Shown here piece by piece: positions 11,815-36,334 of a stretch of DNA of 64,000 nucleotides (within the stretch, counting starts at the first letter, position 1; every line of letters starts with the position of its first letter). The notes beneath the pieces are model-generated. The model was given only the letters and a program-made list of their open reading frames with translations, was not told the DNA's origin and searched no databases. The translations under genes and the position numbers were made by a program. This DNA is from Candidatus Spongiisociaceae bacterium (GTDB lineage: Bacteria > Actinomycetota > Acidimicrobiia > Spongiisociales > Spongiisociaceae): the NCBI GenBank assembly GCA_965262915.1, contig OZ253564.1, positions 512,001 to 576,000 on the forward strand, read 5' to 3'.

Positions 11815-12070
11815 GGCTCTTCGGAAATGAGATGCTTCTATGTCTTACAAAATCGGTTCTGGGGTCGGGTTGGTGAGCCATTGTTGGTATCGACTGGCGA
11901 GTTGGTGGTTGCGGTCGAGGCCGCGTTCAAGTCGTGACAGTACGGTCGCGTGAGCGTCGAGGCGCTCCGTGGCGTGGGTGAGGGGTTATTCGGGCGGTCG
12001 GGGTGAACCGCCGACTTGTATCTGAGGGCTGAACTGTCCCACCCATCCGGTTCCGCCGGTGGGCGGAGCA
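11815..12070 (-). mobile_element. Remnant of a diverged IS110 right end (HTH tail) abutting an ISL3-type terminal repeat
   Basis: Minus strand ends ACATAGAAGCATC, like ACATAGGAGCATC of the IS110 at 31394-31406, and encodes TVLSRLERGL..HQLASRYQQWLT; flanked by GGCTCTTCGGAAATGA (11815-11830). Confidence 0.65.
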
Positions 12071-15100: not shown

Positions 15101-16261
15101 GAACTCGACGAGACGCTCATCTCCCAGCAAGCGTCCGTGCTGAACACCGATCATCTATCCGCGCTGATCCACGCGCTGACAGGTAACGTCTTTCGTCGGC
15201 TGGTAATGCCGGATCAGTACAGAAGGCTGGCGGCGTACCTCACCGACACGGTGATCGGGTATCACCTCGAAGGTGCCCGGAGCGAACCTTGGACCCTTCT
15301 GGGTATGGATGGGCATCCAGCCAGCCTTGACCGACTCAGCGAGCTTCTTAGCGATATCCACGCGGTTGTCAGCGAGCTGGCAACCAATGACACCAACGTT
15401 GCGAATGTATTCAGGAGCGTACGTTCCGGAGGAAAGGGACAAGCGCTCCACCGAGCTGCTCGCACTAGTCGGCGTCAACACCGGCAACGTGTCAGTGCCC
15501 GCTGCCGGGCTTTGCAGAAGGTGTGCGACGCCACAGGCTTGAGCACCAAGGTATTGCATCGCCAACCGGAGCAGACTCCTCTCCTCGAATTCGCCATAAC
15601 CGTCGAACTCGGCTCCCTCGTCGAATGGGAGGACGCGCACTCAACACTGGAAGCAGCCCTAGGACCGAACCGGCCCCCCGCGGAGATCTACCTGCTCGTT
15701 CCGCTCCGGGGTCAAAGGTCAGTACCAAGCCAGGCGATGCAGTTGATCGACTCTCTGTTACATTCGCCGGATCCGGGCGACTGGGCGACCACGGTCTCCG
15801 AACCCGCCCCTAGCGAACTCGCCGACACTTTCAGCGAGGCGCAGGAAGCGCTTCAGGTCCTCTCGGGTATCTGCCACGTCCCAGAAGACCAGCAGACGCA
15901 TCAGACAATTCAGACCGCCGTGGAACAAGCCACGTCCCGATTCCGGAAAGCATACGAAAGGCTTCTCGAACTACCGTCGGATCCACTGATCGACGAACTG
16001 GTAGCAGTTGTTAAAGCTCTGGCAGCACAAGTGCAAGCAGAACTCGACGGGACACATTCCGGCCTGAGCCTCGCTGAGAAAGTCGCTCTCGGCGTATTCC
16101 AAGGTGACCGAACAGAGGAGTTCGACACTATCTTGGGTGCCCGATGCCTGGCCCTAGAGTGGGAAATCGATCCCAAGGCCGCTCTGGCAATGTTCGCTGA
16201 CCTTTCAGAGGCTGCGCGGAAATGTGGGGTGGGTGGGTTGAAATCCTTGGAATGGGGGTGA
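12161..16261 (+). CDS. Large PD-(D/E)xK (Cap4-like) nuclease - P-loop NTPase protein, putative anti-phage effector; last codons derive from an ISL3 end
   Basis: AGRGFNFQ..EGFED..HIQVK nuclease motif; SGPSGVGKS Walker A; FLVD Walker B; long helical C-terminus. Confidence 0.75.
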   Translation: MVVARRKKKGRRRPSRGPSAPRQQKPVVTVRDSGATAGADAAADGGRSELLFKRWGESRAGARAGRGFNFQNTVGAWLAAQMASSRMAADVLVPEGFEDMSLEGASPLHIQVKSRVQRRDRFPIWEATKHILDAWEKHLSRGKDDSILVVVLERGVKGEENLAGFGRPLADSLSSDSGLRAGLRRAAGARGINSDGMDRLLSCTVVVGVTWEEVTAGTVAELDCLVDLPPSGLGLVERHLRTMVADAADANATTDYEHRRRLSRTELVEEIETTAGLVDISSLEFAVREGICEPLDLTGSVPADDRFYEGTATQPHHVAAGLVVPQPTVMDKILFGLDERSAVVISGPSGVGKSAVLWTVPLALSGVLWYRVRRLADGDVPHLIRLARAYRATRETPVGFLVDAAGTDALGGWARLRAEAATVPGVLLVGTARSEDLITLGDLSDCVRIPIRLDETAAETIFRGLERRGATTVAHWAEAFANSDGLTLEFTHMLTRGRRLHDVISEQVRRRIADKRRHLELEVLSLVSVADRWTVSISTPDLAAACAVTDFELRKATSRLAHEHLVIERDGAMSGLHRLRSTAISDVIHDQPPPDLHSTVRRVLDLVPDSELCRFVANLLRDEPSAKETIINAASSDVPSPGRLVAYLHGLRLSDFHKVARVWKGIADDHRIPESSQALLFYYTAVGVPVPDLLPHEIRAAQEAMNTAPVPTSRDDLVAVVGEKTIAELLALINDVSEATAMFAVLETGTPNLVSAIRQTLNDDSPLVRALDTAPVDQLAELMATARSCDRTVAEHLVGLIGGRDTVLLRVRAHNPWITELEIRAGEDGPVAYGRFLHVSDIVQGNAQEEAVALGQVLLRCLPSIESVDIQALTPGGQEIRIGNRIFGVTHLQRQYDHSLSGIAWNQARIRGALTLVGEADTVRLAKARPLLDQAASLTYEAGTQLVTGTPHNLGPRQLTEQINELHELGQSLGPRRETAELDETLISQQASVLNTDHLSALIHALTGNVFRRLVMPDQYRRLAAYLTDTVIGYHLEGARSEPWTLLGMDGHPASLDRLSELLSDIHAVVSELATNDTNVANVFRSVRSGGKGQALHRAARTSRRQHRQRVSARCRALQKVCDATGLSTKVLHRQPEQTPLLEFAITVELGSLVEWEDAHSTLEAALGPNRPPAEIYLLVPLRGQRSVPSQAMQLIDSLLHSPDPGDWATTVSEPAPSELADTFSEAQEALQVLSGICHVPEDQQTHQTIQTAVEQATSRFRKAYERLLELPSDPLIDELVAVVKALAAQVQAELDGTHSGLSLAEKVALGVFQGDRTEEFDTILGARCLALEWEIDPKAALAMFADLSEAARKCGVGGLKSLEWG

Positions 16262-16550
16262 GGGTTCGCTGGAATCGGTGAGTTACTAAATCGCCGGTCC
16301 AGGGAGCCTCGATGTCTCATGTCATGTCCGTTCGGTTGCACCTGTCGGGTGTTCGCGTGTTGGAGGTGGGGGTCGATTCGGATGGTGGCCGCCATCATGG
16401 GGTGGGGATGGCATCGGATCATGGGCTTGGTGAGAGTTCACTCGGCTTTGGTGGCGGAGCGTCACCGGGCCCGGCCGTGTCGTGTGCTGCTGGTAGACGA
16501 AACATCGATCCGGCGCCGGTGTCGGTATGTGACCGTGGTGGCCTGCGGTG
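16208..16550 (+). mobile_element. Internally deleted ISL3 remnant with an uninterrupted left IR
   Basis: GAGGCTGCGCGGAAATGTGGGG then high similarity to 31407-32010 (MSHVMSVRLHLSGVRV; LLVDETSIRRR). Confidence 0.85.
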
Positions 16551-16785
16551 ACGCACAGCCATGTATTGGGTCACTAGGTATGATTATCCCGCCCGGCTGG
16601 GAAGGTAATCGTAAATCCGTGTGGACATGCGGCCCGTGTACGGATAGCGACATATCACCGGCCAGTACTGGAACTCCGGCGTTGGAGTGGAAGATGACCG
16701 TCAATTGGTTAGCCTCACCTTAACCTAGAACTAACTCCACGAGTCGGCTAGGAAGCGCCGCCGACGCTCGATCCCGCTCAGTTCG

Positions 16786-28971: not shown

Positions 28972-29116
28972 TGTTTCCCCAGGTAGATGGCGGTTTCCGG
29001 CGGTCGGCGGCCGGTGGCGTGCATAACACGGTCGAATATACGACGGTTACTACTGGTCAACGATGGTCAGCAGAGACCCGGCTAGTAGACGATCTCCCGC
29101 GTACCGTGAACCCCCT

Positions 29117-29284
29117 ATGAGCAGAGTCCGTCCCCCAGGGCGCCCACCACCCACATATCCCCCCGGCCGCTACTGCACCACCGACAGCTGCACGGCGCGC
29201 CTATCCATCTACAACCCGACCGACCACTGCGGCCTCCACTCCCCCCGCCGACACCCACACAAACGGAACCGCCGAGGCTGGTGA
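29117..29284 (+). CDS. Small Cys/His (putative Zn-binding) protein
   Basis: C-x4-C-TARLSIYN-x4-C-x2-H, conserved in the paralogous block at ~4090-4210. Confidence 0.5.
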   Translation: MSRVRPPGRPPPTYPPGRYCTTDSCTARLSIYNPTDHCGLHSPRRHPHKRNRRGW

Positions 29285-29864
29285 GACTATCGGGCGGGTA
29301 GCCGCTGTCGGCGGCCGGTCGAGCCTCCCGAGTCCTTTCAGAGGTTGGGAATACGGCAGTAGGTGGGAGGGGCCGTTACGTGGGGGGAAACGGCCCGAGG
29401 TTCCCGGGCCCAGAACGCTGCTCTACCCGCGGGCTCGCCGGATGCGGGACACCATCGACCACCACTCCCGATCCGCCACCGGCGCGTCTTTACCCACCAG
29501 CACCCGCAGCGACACAAGCAAGAGCCGATATTGGGTGACCACCATTAGGCTGCCCCTCGTCGAGACCATACCAACCGACACGAGCCCCCAGCGGAAGGGT
29601 GCTCCGCTGCCGCCACCCGGCGAACAGCCATGGAACCGGGTTCCCCAGCACGCCGTTGGTGGCTCTCCCCCTCGAGGGGTTTCGGACGGAAACGACCCCG
29701 AAACCGTCCCAAACCGGCCCTAAGATCGTTAACTAACATAACGCAAAGGGCTGGGAGCCGTTTTGCGGGCTGGGAGAACCCTGCCATGAGCCGGGGAGGC
29801 TTGGCCGTCCTGGTTTGTGTCTTCTTTTCTTGGGCGTCGGCGGGTGGGCCTGTCGGGGGTGTCC

Positions 29865-29914
29865 ATGCCCTGCCATGCCGCGCCGAGCCCAGCCACGCCA
29901 CGCCCAGCCAAGCC
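29865..29914 (-). ncRNA. (GGC-NN)x10 pentamer array, candidate guide RNA
   Basis: Minus strand GGCtt GGCtg GGCgt GGCgt GGCtg GGCtc GGCgc GGCat GGCag GGCat; the array is seen directly, its RNA function is inferred. Confidence 0.6.
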
Positions 29915-29954
29915 GCGAAGAAGGTTGGCCCTGCGCGAAAACACTCATACTTAT

Positions 29955-30135
29955 AGGGTTTCCGGTTGGGGCCGGGTCTGACTCACGCGAAAACTGGCCT
30001 TTGGTGCCTTTCCCACGATCTGTCGACCTGGCCCCGGCTAGGAACCCTGAACCGGGGAGCGGGGTGACTTGATAGGAGCCTTCGACTTCTCCACCGTGAG
30101 TGTTCTGTCCGCCGCTCTGCCCGGCTCCGGGGGTT
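29955..30135 (+). ncRNA. IS110 bridge RNA (target-binding loop, then donor-binding loop)
   Basis: Two hairpins with internal loops holding CGCGAAAAC/CCCACG (match the target) and ATAGGAGC/TGAGTG (match the circle junction). Confidence 0.75.
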
Positions 30136-30166
30136 GGATTCTAGGCAGCCGACGAAAGGCGAGCAC

Positions 30167-31399
30167 ATGGCGGAGCAAGTTAGGGCCGATGGGGTAGGTG
30201 TGGTTGGCGGGGTGGACACACATCGGGATTTCCACGTTGGGGCGGTGGTGGATGGCGCGGGTCGCCTGTTGGGATCCGATCAGTTCGGCGCTGATACCTC
30301 CGGTTATGCCCAACTGGTCGCCTGGATGGAGTCGTGGGGTCGGATCACACGGGTCGGGGTGGAAGGAACGGGCAGCTACGGCGCTGGGCTCACACGTCAT
30401 CTTGCCGAGGCGGGTATCGGTGTGGTGGAGGTGAACCGTCCCAACCGCCAGCTTCGCCGGCGGCGGGGCAAGGATGACACCACCGACGCCGAAGCAGCAG
30501 CCCGGGCTGCTCTCAACGGTGAAGCGACCGCCCTACCCAAGACGGGCGACGGACCGGTAGAAGCCACCAGGATGCTGCGGGTAGTTCGCCGCTCCGCGGT
30601 CAAAGCCCGCACCCAGGCCGCCAACCAGCTGCACGCTCTGGTAGTAACCGCTCCTGAGCAGGTCAAACACCAACTCCGGGATCTCCCGACCCGGACACAG
30701 GTCAAGGTCTGTGCCCGCTTCCGTCCGGGCACAGCGCAGACCACTGCGGCATACGCCAAGCGGGCACTGCGGCTTCTAGCCCGCCGATACCAGAATCTAG
30801 ACACCGAGATCACACAGGTCGACAAACAGATCCGCGGTCTCTGCGCACGGGCCAACCCTGCGTTGCTGGCCGCCTACGGAGTAGGACCCGACACCGCCGC
30901 TGCTCTGCTGGTCGCTGCTGGTGACAACCCACGACGTATGAACTCAGAAGCAGCCTTCGCGGCCCTCTGCGGTGTCAGCCCCGTAGCCGCATCATCGGGA
31001 CGGATAGTGCGGCACCGTCTCAACCGAGGCGGCAACCGCCAAGCAAACAACGCGCTATGGCGGATCGCTACCAACCGAATGCGCACCGACGCTGCCACCA
31101 AAGAATATGTCACCAGACGCGAAGCGGAAGGAAAAACCCACACCGAAATAATCCGCTGCCTGAAACGCCACATCGCCCGCGAGATATACCACCTCCTCAC
31201 CGACCCGCCCCCAACACCCCACGGAACCGACCTACGCCACCGCCGAACCCAAGCCCGAATCACCCTCACCCGCGCCGCCCACCACCTCGACACGCAGCCC
31301 ACCGTCCTATCACAACTCGAACGAGGCCTCCACCACAACCACCACCTCGCTACCCGATACCAACACTGGCTCACCCAACAACCGATTTGCAAAACATAG
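30167..31399 (+). CDS. IS110 family recombinase with C-terminal XRE-like HTH
   Basis: GVDTH, GVEGTGSYG, GKDDTTDA (DEDD), GVGP, SSG..RLNRGGNR; RBS GAAAGG. Confidence 0.95.
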   Translation: MAEQVRADGVGVVGGVDTHRDFHVGAVVDGAGRLLGSDQFGADTSGYAQLVAWMESWGRITRVGVEGTGSYGAGLTRHLAEAGIGVVEVNRPNRQLRRRRGKDDTTDAEAAARAALNGEATALPKTGDGPVEATRMLRVVRRSAVKARTQAANQLHALVVTAPEQVKHQLRDLPTRTQVKVCARFRPGTAQTTAAYAKRALRLLARRYQNLDTEITQVDKQIRGLCARANPALLAAYGVGPDTAAALLVAAGDNPRRMNSEAAFAALCGVSPVAASSGRIVRHRLNRGGNRQANNALWRIATNRMRTDAATKEYVTRREAEGKTHTEIIRCLKRHIAREIYHLLTDPPPTPHGTDLRHRRTQARITLTRAAHHLDTQPTVLSQLERGLHHNHHLATRYQHWLTQQPICKT

Positions 31400-31498
31400 G
31401 AGCATCGTGGGTTGGGTGGGGTGAAATCCTTGGAATGGGGGTGAGGCCCCGCTGGAATCGGTGAATAGCCAACATCGCCGATCCAGGGAGAGGCCTCG

Positions 31499-32695
31499 AT
31501 GTCTGATGTTATGCAAGTACGGCTGCACCTGTCGGGTGTTCGCGTGATGAGAGTGCTGGTCGACTCTGTTGAGCGTCTTGAGGTTGAAGTCGAATCGGCT
31601 CGGGAGTGGTCGCGGTGCCGCCATTGCGGGTTCCGCTGCTATCGGGTGTGGGACCGACGGCCCAAGAGGGTTCGTGACCTGGGGGTGAGCGGCCGCCGCA
31701 CCACGCTGGTGTGGCGGCGACGCCGGTTCGAATGTGGGAACTGTGGCGAGCGGCACCTCGAGGACCACGACCAGTTCGAAGCTGGCCTAACCCGCCGGTT
31801 CGCCCGTCGCCTGGTGGCGGATGCAACGGTGATGTCGATTCGGGCAGCGTCCCGCCATCATGGGGTGGGGTGGCATCGGATCATGGGCCTTGTCCGCGCG
31901 GAGGCGGCTCAGGTGGCGCAGCGTCGCCGGGCCCGGCCGTGTCGTGTGCTGTTGGTCGACGAAACGTCGATACGGCGCCGTCACCGGTATGTGACCGTGG
32001 TGGCCTGTGGCGACAGCGGCAAGGTGCTGGCGATGATCCCGGGCCGTACGAAAGGGTCGCTGGCCAGGTTCTTTAGGGATCAAGGACCCCAGTGGTGCCG
32101 GCAGGTGGAGATAGTCGTGAGCGACGGGTCCCGCTCATATCAGGCCGCAATCGCACAGTATCTGCCAGCTGCTCGCCATGTGCTCGACCGGTTCCACGTC
32201 GTACGCTGGTTCACCCAAGGCCTCACTCTGGTACGCAGAGAGCTGCAGCGCCGCGACCCCCACCGGCGTCCCCCAACGTTCGAGCCGGATCTGTCCCGAG
32301 CCCGCTTCACCCTCCTGCGCCGGGCCGATCACCTAACCGAAGCCCACCAGGCGCACCTCGACAGACTGTTCGATGCTCATCCCCGTCTCCGCACCGCGTG
32401 GGACGCTCTCCAAGAGCTCTACCAGCTATATCAGGCAGACGACCTCGACGGGGCCAACCAGGCGCTCGGACGGTTCGCCGACCTCTACGCCACCGGCCAG
32501 ATACCCCAATACCACCAAGTCGTGGACACCATCATCGCATGGGGAGAACAGATCTTGGCCTACCACACCACCCAACGACGGGTATCCAACGGACCCCCCG
32601 AAGGGATCAACAACCTCCACCAAGTCCTACGACGCGTCGCCCACGGCTTCACCAACTACGACAACTACGCCGCCCGAGGAATCCTCGTAACATGA
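31499..32695 (+). CDS. ISL3 family transposase
   Basis: N-terminal CxxC..CxxC, LVDETS, VVSDG, LDRFHVV, SNGPPEGINN. Confidence 0.93.
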   Translation: MSDVMQVRLHLSGVRVMRVLVDSVERLEVEVESAREWSRCRHCGFRCYRVWDRRPKRVRDLGVSGRRTTLVWRRRRFECGNCGERHLEDHDQFEAGLTRRFARRLVADATVMSIRAASRHHGVGWHRIMGLVRAEAAQVAQRRRARPCRVLLVDETSIRRRHRYVTVVACGDSGKVLAMIPGRTKGSLARFFRDQGPQWCRQVEIVVSDGSRSYQAAIAQYLPAARHVLDRFHVVRWFTQGLTLVRRELQRRDPHRRPPTFEPDLSRARFTLLRRADHLTEAHQAHLDRLFDAHPRLRTAWDALQELYQLYQADDLDGANQALGRFADLYATGQIPQYHQVVDTIIAWGEQILAYHTTQRRVSNGPPEGINNLHQVLRRVAHGFTNYDNYAARGILVT

Positions 32696-32736
32696 CCCCA
32701 CACCGAGCGCCAGCACAGCCAAAACCCACGATGCTC

Positions 32737-33969
32737 CTATGTTTTGCAAATCGGTTGTTGGGTGAGCCAGTGTTGGTATCGGGTAGCGAGGTGGTGGTTG
32801 TGGTGGAGGCCTCGTTCGAGTTGTGATAGGACGGTGGGCTGCGTGTCGAGGTGGTGGGCGGCGCGGGTGAGGGTGATTCGGGCTTGGGTTCGGCGGTGGC
32901 GTAGGTCGGTTCCGTGGGGTGTTGGGGGCGGGTCGGTGAGGAGGTGGTATATCTCGCGGGCGATGTGGCGTTTCAGGCAGCGGATTATTTCGGTGTGGGT
33001 TTTTCCTTCCGCTTCGCGTCTGGTGACATATTCTTTGGTGGCAGCGTCGGTGCGCATTCGGTTGGTAGCGATCCGCCATAGCGCGTTGTTTGCTTGGCGG
33101 TTGCCGCCTCGGTTGAGACGGTGCCGCACTATCCGTCCCGATGATGCGGCTACGGGGCTGACACCGCAGAGGGCCGCGAAGGCTGCTTCTGAGTTCATAC
33201 GTCGTGGGTTGTCACCAGCAGCGACCAGCAGAGCAGCGGCGGTGTCGGGTCCTACTCCGTAGGCGGCCAGCAACGCAGGGTTGGCCCGTGCGCAGAGACC
33301 GCGGATCTGTTTGTCGACCTGTGTGATCTCGGTGTCTAGATTCTGGTATCGGCGGGCTAGAAGCCGCAGTGCCCGCTTGGCGTATGCCGCAGTGGTCTGC
33401 GCTGTGCCCGGACGGAAGCGGGCACAGACCTTGACCTGTGTCCGGGTCGGGAGATCCCGGAGTTGGTGTTTGACCTGCTCAGGAGCGGTTACTACCAGAG
33501 CGTGCAGCTGGTTGGCGGCCTGGGTGCGGGCTTTGACCGCGGAGCGGCGAACTACCCGCAGCATCCTGGTGGCTTCTACCGGTCCGTCGCCCGTCTTGGG
33601 TAGGGCGGTCGCTTCACCGTTGAGAGCAGCCCGGGCTGCTGCTTCGGCGTCGGTGGTGTCATCCTTGCCCCGCCGCCGGCGAAGCTGGCGGTTGGGACGG
33701 TTCACCTCCACCACACCGATACCCGCCTCGGCAAGATGACGTGTGAGCCCAGCGCCGTAGCTGCCCGTTCCTTCCACCCCGACCCGTGTGATCCGACCCC
33801 ACGACTCCATCCAGGCGACCAGTTGGGCATAACCGGAGGTATCAGCGCCGAACTGATCGGATCCCAACAGGCGACCCGCGCCATCCACCACCGCCCCAAC
33901 GTGGAAATCCCGATGTGTGTCCACCCCGCCAACCACACCTACCCCATCGGCCCTAACTTGCTCCGCCAT
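32737..33969 (-). CDS. IS110 family recombinase with C-terminal XRE-like HTH
   Basis: Identical to 30167-31399. Confidence 0.95.
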   Translation of the reverse strand: MAEQVRADGVGVVGGVDTHRDFHVGAVVDGAGRLLGSDQFGADTSGYAQLVAWMESWGRITRVGVEGTGSYGAGLTRHLAEAGIGVVEVNRPNRQLRRRRGKDDTTDAEAAARAALNGEATALPKTGDGPVEATRMLRVVRRSAVKARTQAANQLHALVVTAPEQVKHQLRDLPTRTQVKVCARFRPGTAQTTAAYAKRALRLLARRYQNLDTEITQVDKQIRGLCARANPALLAAYGVGPDTAAALLVAAGDNPRRMNSEAAFAALCGVSPVAASSGRIVRHRLNRGGNRQANNALWRIATNRMRTDAATKEYVTRREAEGKTHTEIIRCLKRHIAREIYHLLTDPPPTPHGTDLRHRRTQARITLTRAAHHLDTQPTVLSQLERGLHHNHHLATRYQHWLTQQPICKT

Positions 33970-34000
33970 GTGCTCGCCTTTCGTCGGCTGCCTAGAATCC

Positions 34001-34181
34001 AACCCCCGGAGCCGGGCAGAGCGGCGGACAGAACACTCACGGTGGAGAAGTCGAAGGCTCCTATCAAGTCACCCCGCTCCCCGGTTCAGGGTTCCTAGCC
34101 GGGGCCAGGTCGACAGATCGTGGGAAAGGCACCAAAGGCCAGTTTTCGCGTGAGTCAGACCCGGCCCCAACCGGAAACCCT
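34001..34181 (-). ncRNA. IS110 bridge RNA (copy 2)
   Basis: Mirror of 29955-30135. Confidence 0.75.
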
Positions 34182-34218
34182 ATAAGTATGAGTGTTTTCG
34201 CGCAGCCTCAGAAGGTTT

Positions 34219-34818
34219 CTACGGGAGCGGTTCGATGTCCTCCACCTCGTACCGGCCGTACTGTCCCGATTTTTCGGGTCGCCAGTCCCCAACCCCGACC
34301 CGGCGTCCCCCAATGTCCAACCATCGCAGCAGCTGGTCGCGGTCTACGAGTTCGGGGTCTACCTCGACGAGGATCGTGGCTGCCCACTGGTCGAACCGGG
34401 CCCGGGTACGCAACAGACGGCTCCCCCCGACTCTCACCCCGGTGGTGAACTGGCAGCTGCGGGCCAGCTCCTCGGCGGTGGTGCCCGGGCTCCGGTCGTG
34501 GTGGAAGCGCTCCACTGCTTCCACCACCAGCCCTTCCCGAACTTTGGGGCCGTGCCGCAACCCCCAAGGAGAGGGACGCCGCCTCATGAGGGCTGTGCCG
34601 CAGCTGCGTGTGCCAGTCACAAGGCGAAACTGAACACAGCCTCCCTCCACTACCAGCCGGAACGCCCACCGAGAGACAAAGCACGACGGATCAGAGCAAA
34701 AGCCATCCCACAAATCAGCGACGAACTCGCCCGAGCTGGCGGAACCGTCGAAGGCATGGGAACCCATCAACGCCAAAGACCGCCGACAACCCGTCCCCGA
34801 ACGTGGCATCACCCACAC
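34219..34818 (-). CDS. RAMP/Cas7-like Gly-loop protein of phage/MGE type; only the C-terminal ~120 aa look genuine (probably 5'-truncated)
   Basis: RTRARFDQW..VDPELVDRDQLLRWLDIGGRRVGVGDWRPEKSGQYGRYEV; originally directly upstream of the GGC-NN array. Confidence 0.6.
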   Translation of the reverse strand: MWVMPRSGTGCRRSLALMGSHAFDGSASSGEFVADLWDGFCSDPSCFVSRWAFRLVVEGGCVQFRLVTGTRSCGTALMRRRPSPWGLRHGPKVREGLVVEAVERFHHDRSPGTTAEELARSCQFTTGVRVGGSRLLRTRARFDQWAATILVEVDPELVDRDQLLRWLDIGGRRVGVGDWRPEKSGQYGRYEVEDIEPLP

Positions 34819-35104
34819 GTCGGCTTAAAACCAGGCTCGGGAAGAACCTCCGATACGGGACGGGTACCGGTCCGCCCGCGGCTTCCTAGCGTAGGAGGTC
34901 TGTACTCCCTCGAGTTCTGCACTCCCGGCGTCCTCGAGGAGATCGGTCGTGTGCCGATATTGGGTGACCACGAGGTCGGCCGCAACAGCGATACTGCCCA
35001 CCGAGATCAGGGCTACGTTCTCAGCGAACCATCAACGGCGAGACCTCAACCCGTTCGATATGCGGTGTCAAACACAAGATGCGTGCGCAGGAGCCGCTGC
35101 GTCA

Positions 35105-36334
35105 TCATTCGAGAGCGGCGGCCCACCGGGACAGATGATCCAACGGAATCCGGACATTGCCGGGTATTCGTCTCCGAGCCCTGGTGGCTCGCGCCTCGTC
35201 CTCGCGCATTGCATCCCGTAACTGTGAACTCTCGTTCTCTTCCGATAGCTGCATTTCCCATGCGCGTGCGAGAGCGAAGTGCCGTTTCAATTGGTGATAG
35301 TCAAGCTCGTTGGGGCGTCTAGCGCCCCCGCCGCACACACTACACTCACACGCAAACGCTCGGTCCACTTCCACCAACGAGGTGGCTGCAGCTGTTGGCA
35401 TATAAGCGTGCAGCTTCCGCACATAATATCGAGCAGGTGCAGCACCAGTAGCATCTAGTGTCGGCCAGTCTCGTGACTCGCTATATCCCAATCCGTTATT
35501 AAACCCAGCTAGCCCAACCTTACCCAAGAGTATGCTGAAGTATCCACCGTAGAGGTTCATAAGTTTACGGTTCCCACTCAGTACAGATATCGTCGCTCTA
35601 AGTGAACGAAGATCAGCTACAGACCTCGTACGCTCATCGAATCCTGGTACCCAGAAGAAGATCCTGGAGGAGAGATGATCTGGGACGCAGAGAATTGCTT
35701 CTTCAAGCATCGACAACTCGGTGATCGCAACGACAGGTGAGATTTCATTTGGACGATCAAGACGTTGAGCTGAAGCCCAGAGCCGTTGTGTCACCTCCCA
35801 CCAATCGCTTGATCTGGTTCTAGCCGCGAAGTACGGGCACAACAAGTATGTCGGGCTCTTCGCATCGCTTTCGGATTCCACGTTGCCAGACCCACCTTGG
35901 GCACGATCTAACAGGGACTTATAGCGGTTCAACTTCTCAGCTATATGTTCGGCTCTACCACCGTAGTCGCGTTGAAAGCTGATCATCGATGAGACTACTT
36001 CGTCGCATACGTCAGAGGAATAAAACTCGGCCGGGAACCGGACGCCCTGACCTTCTTGCTCTGACGGTCGACCGAGTCTCTCTACCACCGATTGACCCAT
36101 CGTAGATGCAAGGGTGTAGTGTGAGGCACGCGGATCTCTGATAACCTCCTGGAAGAGAGGGGTTCGCGGCTCAATGAAGTAGTCAAGTCCTGACGACAGC
36201 ACGAAGCCCGCAGTCGCGTCCTGATAATACGAAGCGATCGTAGACGGAACACTCATCACGTCAAAGCAGCGTCGGACTTCTAGATTACGAAAACTAGCTT
36301 GATCTGAGTTCCCGTAGGCGAGGCAATGGAGCAT
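35105..36334 (-). CDS. Hypothetical protein, possibly TIM-barrel/TGT-like, with C-terminal CxCxxC..H Zn site
   Basis: 409-aa ORF, lower GC, CECSVC..KRH; start overlaps the upstream stop. Confidence 0.7.
   Translation of the reverse strand: MLHCLAYGNSDQASFRNLEVRRCFDVMSVPSTIASYYQDATAGFVLSSGLDYFIEPRTPLFQEVIRDPRASHYTLASTMGQSVVERLGRPSEQEGQGVRFPAEFYSSDVCDEVVSSMISFQRDYGGRAEHIAEKLNRYKSLLDRAQGGSGNVESESDAKSPTYLLCPYFAARTRSSDWWEVTQRLWASAQRLDRPNEISPVVAITELSMLEEAILCVPDHLSSRIFFWVPGFDERTRSVADLRSLRATISVLSGNRKLMNLYGGYFSILLGKVGLAGFNNGLGYSESRDWPTLDATGAAPARYYVRKLHAYMPTAAATSLVEVDRAFACECSVCGGGARRPNELDYHQLKRHFALARAWEMQLSEENESSQLRDAMREDEARATRARRRIPGNVRIPLDHLSRWAAALE

Follow-up and report, generated by a model that had tools for sequence, protein, structure and literature searches.

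Two identical IS110 copies, one in each terminal inverted repeat of an ISL3 element, and predicted guide segments matching the interrupted site

A stretch of 64,000 nucleotides (nt) from a Candidatus Spongiisociaceae bacterium (GenBank assembly GCA_965262915.1, contig OZ253564.1, positions 512,001 to 576,000), here called the window, contains an insertion sequence (IS) of the ISL3 family, in which each of the two terminal inverted repeats (IRs) is interrupted by a copy of the same IS110-family element. The features of this locus are listed below, one per line, with their position within the window, their strand and, where it matters, the way in which they were established.

29919..29926, no strand: left copy of the 8-bp target-site duplication (TSD) of the ISL3, AGAAGGTT, from direct sequence reading
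29927..29942, plus strand: outer 16 nt of the left IR (IRL) of the ISL3, GGCCCTGCGCGAAAAC, with IS110 copy A lying between them and the remainder of the IR, from sequence reading and comparison of the IRL with the right IR (IRR)
29943..31406, plus strand: IS110 copy A, 1464 bp, with left end ACTCATAC... and right end ...GGAGCATC, 100% identical to copy B
30167..31399, plus strand: IS110 recombinase gene of copy A, 410 amino acids (aa) counted from the ATG, or 421 aa if translation began at the upstream TTG at 30134
31407..32729, plus strand: ISL3 body, composed of the inner IRL, the transposase gene (31499-32695, 398 aa) and the inner IRR
32730..34193, minus strand: IS110 copy B, 1464 bp, identical to copy A, with its recombinase gene at 32737-33969 (minus strand)
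34194..34209, minus strand: outer 16 nt of the IRR, reverse complement GAGGCTGCGCGAAAAC
34210..34217, no strand: right copy of the TSD, AGAAGGTT, from direct sequence reading

The two IS110 copies and their immediate flanks form a perfect inverted repeat, with arms at 29931-31413 and 32723-34205, each 1483 nt long, 100% complementary and separated by a spacer of 1309 nt; for a perfect repeat of this length, located at homologous positions of both IRs, chance is excluded. Copies A and B show zero differences over 1464 bp, and are placed in mirror orientation, one per terminal IR, at the point ...CGCGAAAAC/IS110/GTGGGTT..., i.e. between IR nt 16 and 17. The whole unit, including both IS110s, measures 4.28 kb, and lies within a source genome assembled as a single contig of 5.06 Mb. 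A preliminary description of the locus had proposed an ISL3 with an 8-bp TSD, carrying two identical 1464-bp IS110 copies in inverted orientation, which was confirmed by inverted-repeat search, slicing and base-by-base reading; the ISL3 of 1355 bp, that it expected after removal of both copies, was reproduced in silico. The same description placed the insertions after nt 15-16 of the IR: the site is correct, and the wavering between 15 and 16 derives from one C at the junction, which may be assigned to either side of the insertion point. It also stated that the restored ends match an empty IR at position 16208. An ISL3-type IR is indeed found there, but the match is not exact, the IR belonging to a fragmentary ISL3 relic (about 16212-16552 of the window), and being empty, at 16215, with two mismatches to the 14 positions of the IS110 target.

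The ISL3 transposase is full length (398 aa) and matches the DDE_Tnp_ISL3 (PF01610, E 3.8e-59) and Zn_ribbon_ISL3 (PF14690, E 2.9e-06) domains; the match to HTH_Tnp_ISL3 (PF13542, E 8e-06) scores 25.7 bits, slightly below the cut-off of 27.4. After removal of the IS110s, the two IRs are identical at 20 of their first 23 nt, with nt 5-23 fully identical between IRL and IRR. An 8-bp target duplication is typical of the ISL3 family. While its transposase gene is intact, the element retains at each tip no more than 16 nt of IR. Since the split, located 16 nt from the tip, separates the end sequence of the ISL3 transposase, this ISL3 copy would be expected to be immobile as long as its IRs are occupied.

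The recombinase encoded by the inserted element contains the DEDD_Tnp_IS110 (PF01548, E 7.9e-24) and Transposase_20 (PF02371, E 7.9e-19) domains. Residues D17, E66, D104, D107 and S277 are invariant in the recombinase alignment of the clade, and align with the IS621 motifs, the serine within an ...ESG motif. A profile built from seven recombinase sequences retrieved, from PDB, the IS621 (8wt6_A, E 5.5e-24) and ISCro4 (9t56_A, E 4.1e-23) transposases. A single-sequence search of PDB had matched no IS110 recombinase, its best matches, to a peroxisomal enzyme, being spurious.

The ends of the element, ACTCATAC... and ...GGAGCATC, which are conserved across the 31 loci of the clade catalogued in the source genome, are not inverted copies of each other, the element being therefore without terminal IRs. 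Filled and empty sites differ by the element alone and by the one ambiguous C, so that there is no multi-base target duplication. The left end includes 224 non-coding nt, while the right end extends just 7 nt beyond the stop codon. In the available text of PMC11208160, a long non-coding left end and a short right end distinguish the IS110 group. The features of the IS1111 group are not found, since the sequence downstream of the gene amounts to 7 nt only, and the guide segments described below are located in the left end, upstream of it. On these sequence features, the element belongs to the IS110 group, and not to the IS1111 group, which includes IS4321 and IS5075.

Exactly four near-identical copies (at least 98% identity) are present in the genome: A, B, C (3638411-3641361) and D (4422068-4419117). 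All of them interrupt an ISL3-type IR at the position ...CGCG(A/G)AAAC/IS110/GTGGGTT..., their left end facing the IR tip, and together they occupy at least three different ISL3 hosts. Copies C and D each carry a nested 1484-bp insert after nt 131-133. Identity between C and D is 98.5% and 98.95% for the two parts of the IS110 and 99.26% for the nested insert, but only 83.0% (842/1014) for the adjoining ISL3 sequences. An identity of about 99% between the IS110s, as opposed to 83% between their hosts, indicates that the IS110 moved independently into different ISL3 lineages. Because of this movement of its own, a "riding" of the IS110 on its host, as earlier suggested, is unnecessary to explain the distribution. 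A TSD was looked for around the ISL3 hosting copy C, and none was found; this ISL3 is therefore probably rearranged. The uninterrupted 14-mer CGCGAAAACGTGGG is found at three perfect sites in the genome, and at five others with one mismatch, all eight in an ISL3-type IR context; in all, 4 of 12 such IR targets are occupied. The genome-wide map of copies and flanks supports the earlier suggestion of an IS110 specialised on ISL3 ends: all four near-identical copies share one IR position and orientation, and the guides located in the left end match the IR target at 14 of 14 positions.

About 30 further elements of the genome, 72-78% identical to the one described, share the ends ACTCATA...GGAGCATC, but have other flanks. 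A short IS110 3' fragment of the same clade is also found at 11848-11995 of the window, with about 80% identity to nt 1311-1437 and a tblastn match to aa 378-419.

The non-coding left end of copy A, and the guide segments recognised within it, are as follows.

29943..30166, plus strand: non-coding left end of copy A, a predicted bridge-RNA gene with two stem-enclosed internal loops
29986..29994, plus strand: left target guide CGCGAAAAC, 9 nt, running in the sense of IR nt 8-16, so that pairing of the RNA would be with the bottom strand; 9/9 match to the left flank
30012..30017, plus strand: right target guide CCCACG, reverse complement of C+GTGGG (IR nt 16-21); 6/6 match
30072..30080, plus strand: left donor guide ATAGGAGCC, matching the right end of the element itself, ...ATAGGAGCATC
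30097..30102, plus strand: right donor guide TGAGTG, reverse complement of C+ACTCA (C being the final base of the right end, and ACTCA the first five of the left end)
34142-34150 and 34119-34124, minus strand: left and right target guides of copy B, mirrored

In an alignment of the left ends of the clade, two short blocks are variable, while the rest is conserved. The first variable block, 9 nt long, equals the left flank in the same sense, and the second, made up of 5 variable positions and an invariant G, is the reverse complement of the last C of the left flank followed by the first 5 nt of the right flank. The available text of PMC11208160 gives a comparable loop geometry, in which the 5' side pairs with 8-9 nt of the bottom strand, and the 3' side with 4-7 nt of the top strand. 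The donor blocks are conserved, one of them, ATAGGAGC(C/T), corresponding to the right end and the other, TGAGTG, to the left end, where C+ACTCA is its reverse complement.

In order to evaluate the correspondence between guides and sites, each of 27 copies, belonging to 7 guide classes, was scored against its own flanks; one further locus was left out on account of its left end, which had been attributed to the neighbour upstream. A perfect 14/14 score was obtained for 18 copies, 13/14 for 7, 12/14 for one and 6/14 for one. In the 42 pairings of guides and targets from non-cognate classes, the mean score was 6.31, and the maximum 10 of 14. The recombinases of the seven classes are 65-75% identical, while their targets differ almost wholly.

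The ability of the left end to fold into a conserved structure was analyzed on 11 left ends from four genomes. In the resulting consensus fold, the guide blocks flank both sides of two stem-enclosed internal loops. The fold includes 36 stem pairs, and 91.7% of the alignment cells are paired; a shift of the partners by 1-3 columns lowers this value to 36.7-47.2%. In twelve pairs both sides have changed, and none of 500 shuffles reaches the observed covariation score, a count which does not correspond to a probability, the sequences being related. When the right end and the left end (RE and LE) are joined in silico, as in a circular form, a putative promoter appears at the junction, with a -35 box that reads TTGCAA in this element and TTGACA in four other classes, followed after a spacer of 17 nt by a -10 box (CATACT or CATAAT). 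All 7 classes have it in the same position, T3 in a weaker variant, and it fits the RE-LE junction promoter reported in the available text of PMC11208160. The left end is therefore predicted to encode a two-loop structure, similar to a bridge RNA.

Taken together, these data make it very probable that the element is an IS110 equipped with a bridge RNA and a DEDD/serine recombinase, whose target loop is programmed for the 14-mer of the ISL3 IR, and that both IR sites of this ISL3 have been filled in this way. The target-binding loop would be programmed for 14 nt (CGCGAAAAC followed by GTGGG), corresponding to nt 8-21 of the IR. As these are identical in IRL and IRR, one ISL3 offers the target twice, in opposite orientation. 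The likely order of events would be the entry of the ISL3 into AGAAGGTT, the insertion of one IS110 into one IR, and the insertion of its copy into the other IR soon afterwards; the zero differences between copies A and B indicate that the second insertion is recent. Most simply, this second insertion would have occurred by copy-out from the first copy, 1.3 kb away. According to published work on the family, a circular intermediate would be formed, whose RE-LE junction would assemble a promoter, with the -35 box from the right end and the -10 box from the left end, driving both RNA and recombinase, and the RNA would then guide strand exchange at the target. Ends of other ISs would represent, for such an IS110, neutral, multi-copy and conserved landing sites. 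The excision of the IS110s, with restoration of the IRs, had also been suggested earlier: it is possible, but is not expected to be the main route, since the available text of two preprints describes copy-out transposition, with the donor copy staying in place, and that of a 2026 Nature paper an excision less efficient than insertion.

Several observations weigh against this interpretation. Three perfect IR targets stay empty. The left target guide occurs in two registers, one base apart, among the sister lineages: in T1, T2, T3 and T6 it ends at the junction C, while in T4, T5 and T7 the guide match is separated from the element by one extra C, the next RNA base being a U, which could wobble-pair; the donor guide is offset by two more bases. 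The copy at 3663632-3665109 (locus 3663666), carrying the T4 guide, lies in a non-cognate site, which it matches at only 6 of 14 positions, probably as the result of an off-target insertion, and one of three copies bearing the same guides as the window element in a genome of the same genus is found in a near-cognate site, which is not an ISL3 end. Guide targeting is, accordingly to these two cases, not absolute. The predicted RNA is founded on comparative sequence, and an Rfam scan of positions 29000-35200 found no family for the left-end RNA, its single hit (E 0.81) being at chance level. Finally, the long-range inverted arrangement rests on the assembly.

The same arrangement of copies might result, alternatively, from hitch-hiking, if the ISL3 transposase had moved the whole 4.28-kb unit as a composite by acting on the outer IR tips, or from recombination or gene conversion between the two ISL3 ends, which would have generated the second copy. 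The 8-bp duplication flanking the whole composite is what composite transposition would also leave, but it is equally expected if the ISL3 came first and the IS110s later. In one public read set (X13), a single contig joins position 29899 to 34210, skipping 4310 bp, with 14 other letters in between and a single AGAAGGTT; this joint, weak as to side (24) and depth (9.9), is a hint of what would be, in a related strain, the chromosomal site without the ISL3 composite. On the other hand, no second copy of the composite is present in the genome, the IS110 of copies C and D entered ISL3 hosts only 83% alike, and the 16 + 7 nt of IR flanking each copy offer very little homology for gene conversion. 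We regard this explanation as improbable, and prefer the separate insertion of each IS110 by means of its guides.

A second alternative is an assembly artefact, in which a fold-back or chimeric read would have duplicated the only real IS110 copy. Perfect inverted repeats of about 1.5 kb are a known type of assembly error. The arms, however, stop exactly at homologous positions of IRL and IRR, unique DNA differs outside each of them, and the two copies of the TSD match; moreover, contigs free of differences cover both outer junctions, and the genome is one contig of 5.06 Mb. The contigs come from public reads, where 13 rows from 7 studies, several labelled as sponge metagenome, contain part of the stretch. 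Four runs were compared, all of them as short k-mer contigs, which cannot span 1483 nt, and in which gaps in cover are uninformative. The left outer junction is covered by a contig of run X8 (29788-29956), the right one by contigs of X8 (34176-34473) and of X12 (34181-34600), a run from another study; these contigs reach just 13-18 nt into the IS110, below the 31-letter threshold set for a bridge. In run X2, the junction between IRL and IS110 was found with a different outside flank, and is thus present at another locus too. Loose contig ends correspond to empty right IRs in X13 and X2 and to an empty left IR in X12, others being located at 30073/30075. In these reads nothing contradicts the assembly, and nothing spans the repeat; an artefact appears highly unlikely. 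Just as hard to credit is a recognition by protein only, in which the recombinase itself would read the ISL3 IR, and the left-end matches would be by-products. The bridge RNA is a prediction, and the guide segments, as identical stretches of DNA, might in principle have been acquired from the target by recombination, for instance by picking up target DNA at excision. Against this, recombinases 65-75% identical face targets almost wholly different; of the left end, only two short blocks vary together with the target, and they are embedded in a conserved fold in which compensatory pairs are found; and the RNA is required in published experiments on the family, as given in the available text of PMC11187229 and PMC11208160.

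The guide-directed insertion of the IS110, preferred here, was also evaluated on other genomes. No copy with more than 78% identity was found in the 40 relatives searched. In a genome of the same genus (G002), three elements, about 77% identical, carry the same two guides: besides the near-cognate case mentioned above, two of them lie in ISL3-type right IRs, one adjoining a C-terminal fragment of an ISL3 transposase gene. In another genome (G007), an element with a T3-type guide is located at the stop codon of an ISL3 gene (84% identical), like its counterpart in the source genome. A scan of a one-genome-per-species collection with a 17-base junction pattern retrieved 59 loci, three of which (L006, L022 and L041) are true junctions, while the remaining 56 are without IS110, and correspond to about the chance level for a collection of this size. 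The three junctions, from an Acidimicrobiia and a Candidatus Spongiisociaceae metagenome-assembled genome, may overlap the relatives searched, and are not counted as extra genomes; the collection may omit the genome of the source, or genomes near-identical to it, so that the scan says little on the spread of the element. The unpublished genome G028 underlies none of the statements made here.

In a further genome (G021), two elements of the clade (L062:2784-3081 and L091:2450-2696) have, as left flank, the guide-encoding DNA of another copy (...GGGTCTGACTCA plus guide). From their sequence, they look like insertions into the guide gene itself, which would match the left half of the target by construction, and are reminiscent of the "half-match" insertions described in the available text of a 2026 preprint.

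All eight cognate target classes of the clade lie in other insertion sequences. They are listed below, followed by two empty sites within the window.

T1: nt 16 of the ISL3 IR
T2: the same ISL3 family, around nt 36
T3: stop codon of the transposase gene of that ISL3
T4 (the most numerous class, with 17 copies): right IR of a second ISL3-family element, at 8 nt from its tip
T5: upstream of an istA/istB pair of IS21 type, at a distance of 61 nt
T6: within a third gene of IS110 type
T7: end of an IS3-type element
T9 (copy at 287119-290128): 4 nt inside the right end of the nested element IS110-b
31420..31433, plus strand: empty, perfect target of the T2 lineage, GGTGAAATC followed by CTTGG, inside the ISL3 of the window
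32683..32696, plus strand: empty, perfect target of the T3 lineage, CCTCGTAAC followed by ATGAC, overlapping the stop codon of the ISL3 transposase

The left IR of the T4 host differs from the right one at 4 of 24 positions, and only the right IR carries the target; the host copy at 311358-312790 (L109) encodes a 445-aa transposase, and is flanked by a perfect 8-bp duplication, AATAAACT.

IS110-b is a second, unrelated IS of the IS110 family, 1484 bp long, encoding a 427-aa DEDD recombinase and present in 11 genome copies. Its left end follows the same guide logic, with a CT-type core. Three elements of the first clade contain it within their left end (at 3638544-3640027, 4420452-4421935 and 287302-288785), exactly at the DNA encoding their donor guide (GGCTCCTA/.../CTATCA), which the left-end guides of IS110-b match; in copies C and D, in particular, its insertion site is the DNA of the left donor guide, where the loose contig ends at 30073/30075 are also located. 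Its copies fall into subgroups according to target: the donor-guide DNA of the first clade for one, the right end of that clade for another, and a CTGACAC heptamer repeat for the rest. The presence of IS110-b within first-clade donor DNA, together with that of T9 within the end of IS110-b, indicates that two types of IS110 target each other. As a tentative extension, which we hold possible rather than probable, the clade may be seen as a hyperparasite of other ISs, whose guides would have been repeatedly retargeted onto sequences that are hard to change, terminal repeats above all, and whose insertions would disable the ends of the host IS.

To the right of the composite, the open reading frames at 34219-34818 and 35105-36334, both on the minus strand, encode 199 and 409 aa, and have no Pfam match at E 0.001.

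The IS4321/IS5075 elements were reportedly found by Partridge and Hall, in 2003, in the terminal IRs of Tn21-family transposons. As far as the available accounts go, they resemble the element described here in that their insertion, into the terminal IR of a different transposable element, is specific for both site and orientation, and this precedent, invoked in the preliminary description, is apt as an analogy. It does not extend to membership of the same subgroup, the present element having a long left end and its RNA upstream of the gene, whereas IS4321/IS5075, according to the available text of PMC11208160 and PMC11187229, belong to the IS1111 group, with subterminal IRs of 7-17 bp and the RNA downstream of the gene. 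Their host, moreover, is a Tn3-family transposon, with a 38-bp IR, and not an ISL3.

A closer likeness is offered by IS621, which shares the DEDD and serine recombinase (profile match to 8wt6_A), the long left end and very short right end, the left-end RNA with target and donor loops, in which the 5' guide pairs with the bottom strand (9 nt) and the 3' guide with the top strand (5-6 nt), and a promoter split across the RE-LE junction. Unlike the present element, which targets the ISL3 IR, IS621 targets, in the available descriptions, repetitive extragenic palindromic (REP) elements with a CT core; here, one C alone is shared between donor and target at the crossover, and the sister lineages show two registers. 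The similarity between the two proteins is detectable by profile only. ISPpu9/ISPpu10 and ISEc21, of IS110 type, are also directed, as far as their available descriptions go, to one conserved repeated target, but this is represented by REP or intergenic repeats, and not by the ends of other ISs; ISEc21, in the available text of PMC11187229, requires a seekRNA encoded upstream of its gene.

RNA-guided targeting by IS110/IS1111 elements, as well as the insertion of IS1111-group elements into Tn21-family IRs, are thus already established in the available literature. In the full text of the literature searched, no published IS110 aimed at ISL3 IRs, nor a clade aimed at other ISs, was found, although the supplementary target tables of two 2024 papers (PMC11208160 and PMC11187229) might hold such cases. 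Insertion of an IS into the end repeats of a transposon, established for the IS1111 group with hosts of Tn21 type, is extended by the elements reported here to the IS110 group, with ISL3, IS3-type, IS21-type and IS110 elements as hosts.

IS110 recombinases are in development as genome-writing tools, and their natural retargeting shows which changes are tolerated. In this respect, one genome provides a graded series of at least seven guide classes, built on a single conserved scaffold. Every class has filled sites, and most have empty ones as well; the two registers, together with some off-target insertions, make the series a ready natural dataset on specificity. A possible silencing of the host element by insertions of this kind becomes directly testable. 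Should the tentative view of the clade as a hyperparasite be true, an RNA-guided conflict among ISs would shape the IS load of an IS-rich genome.

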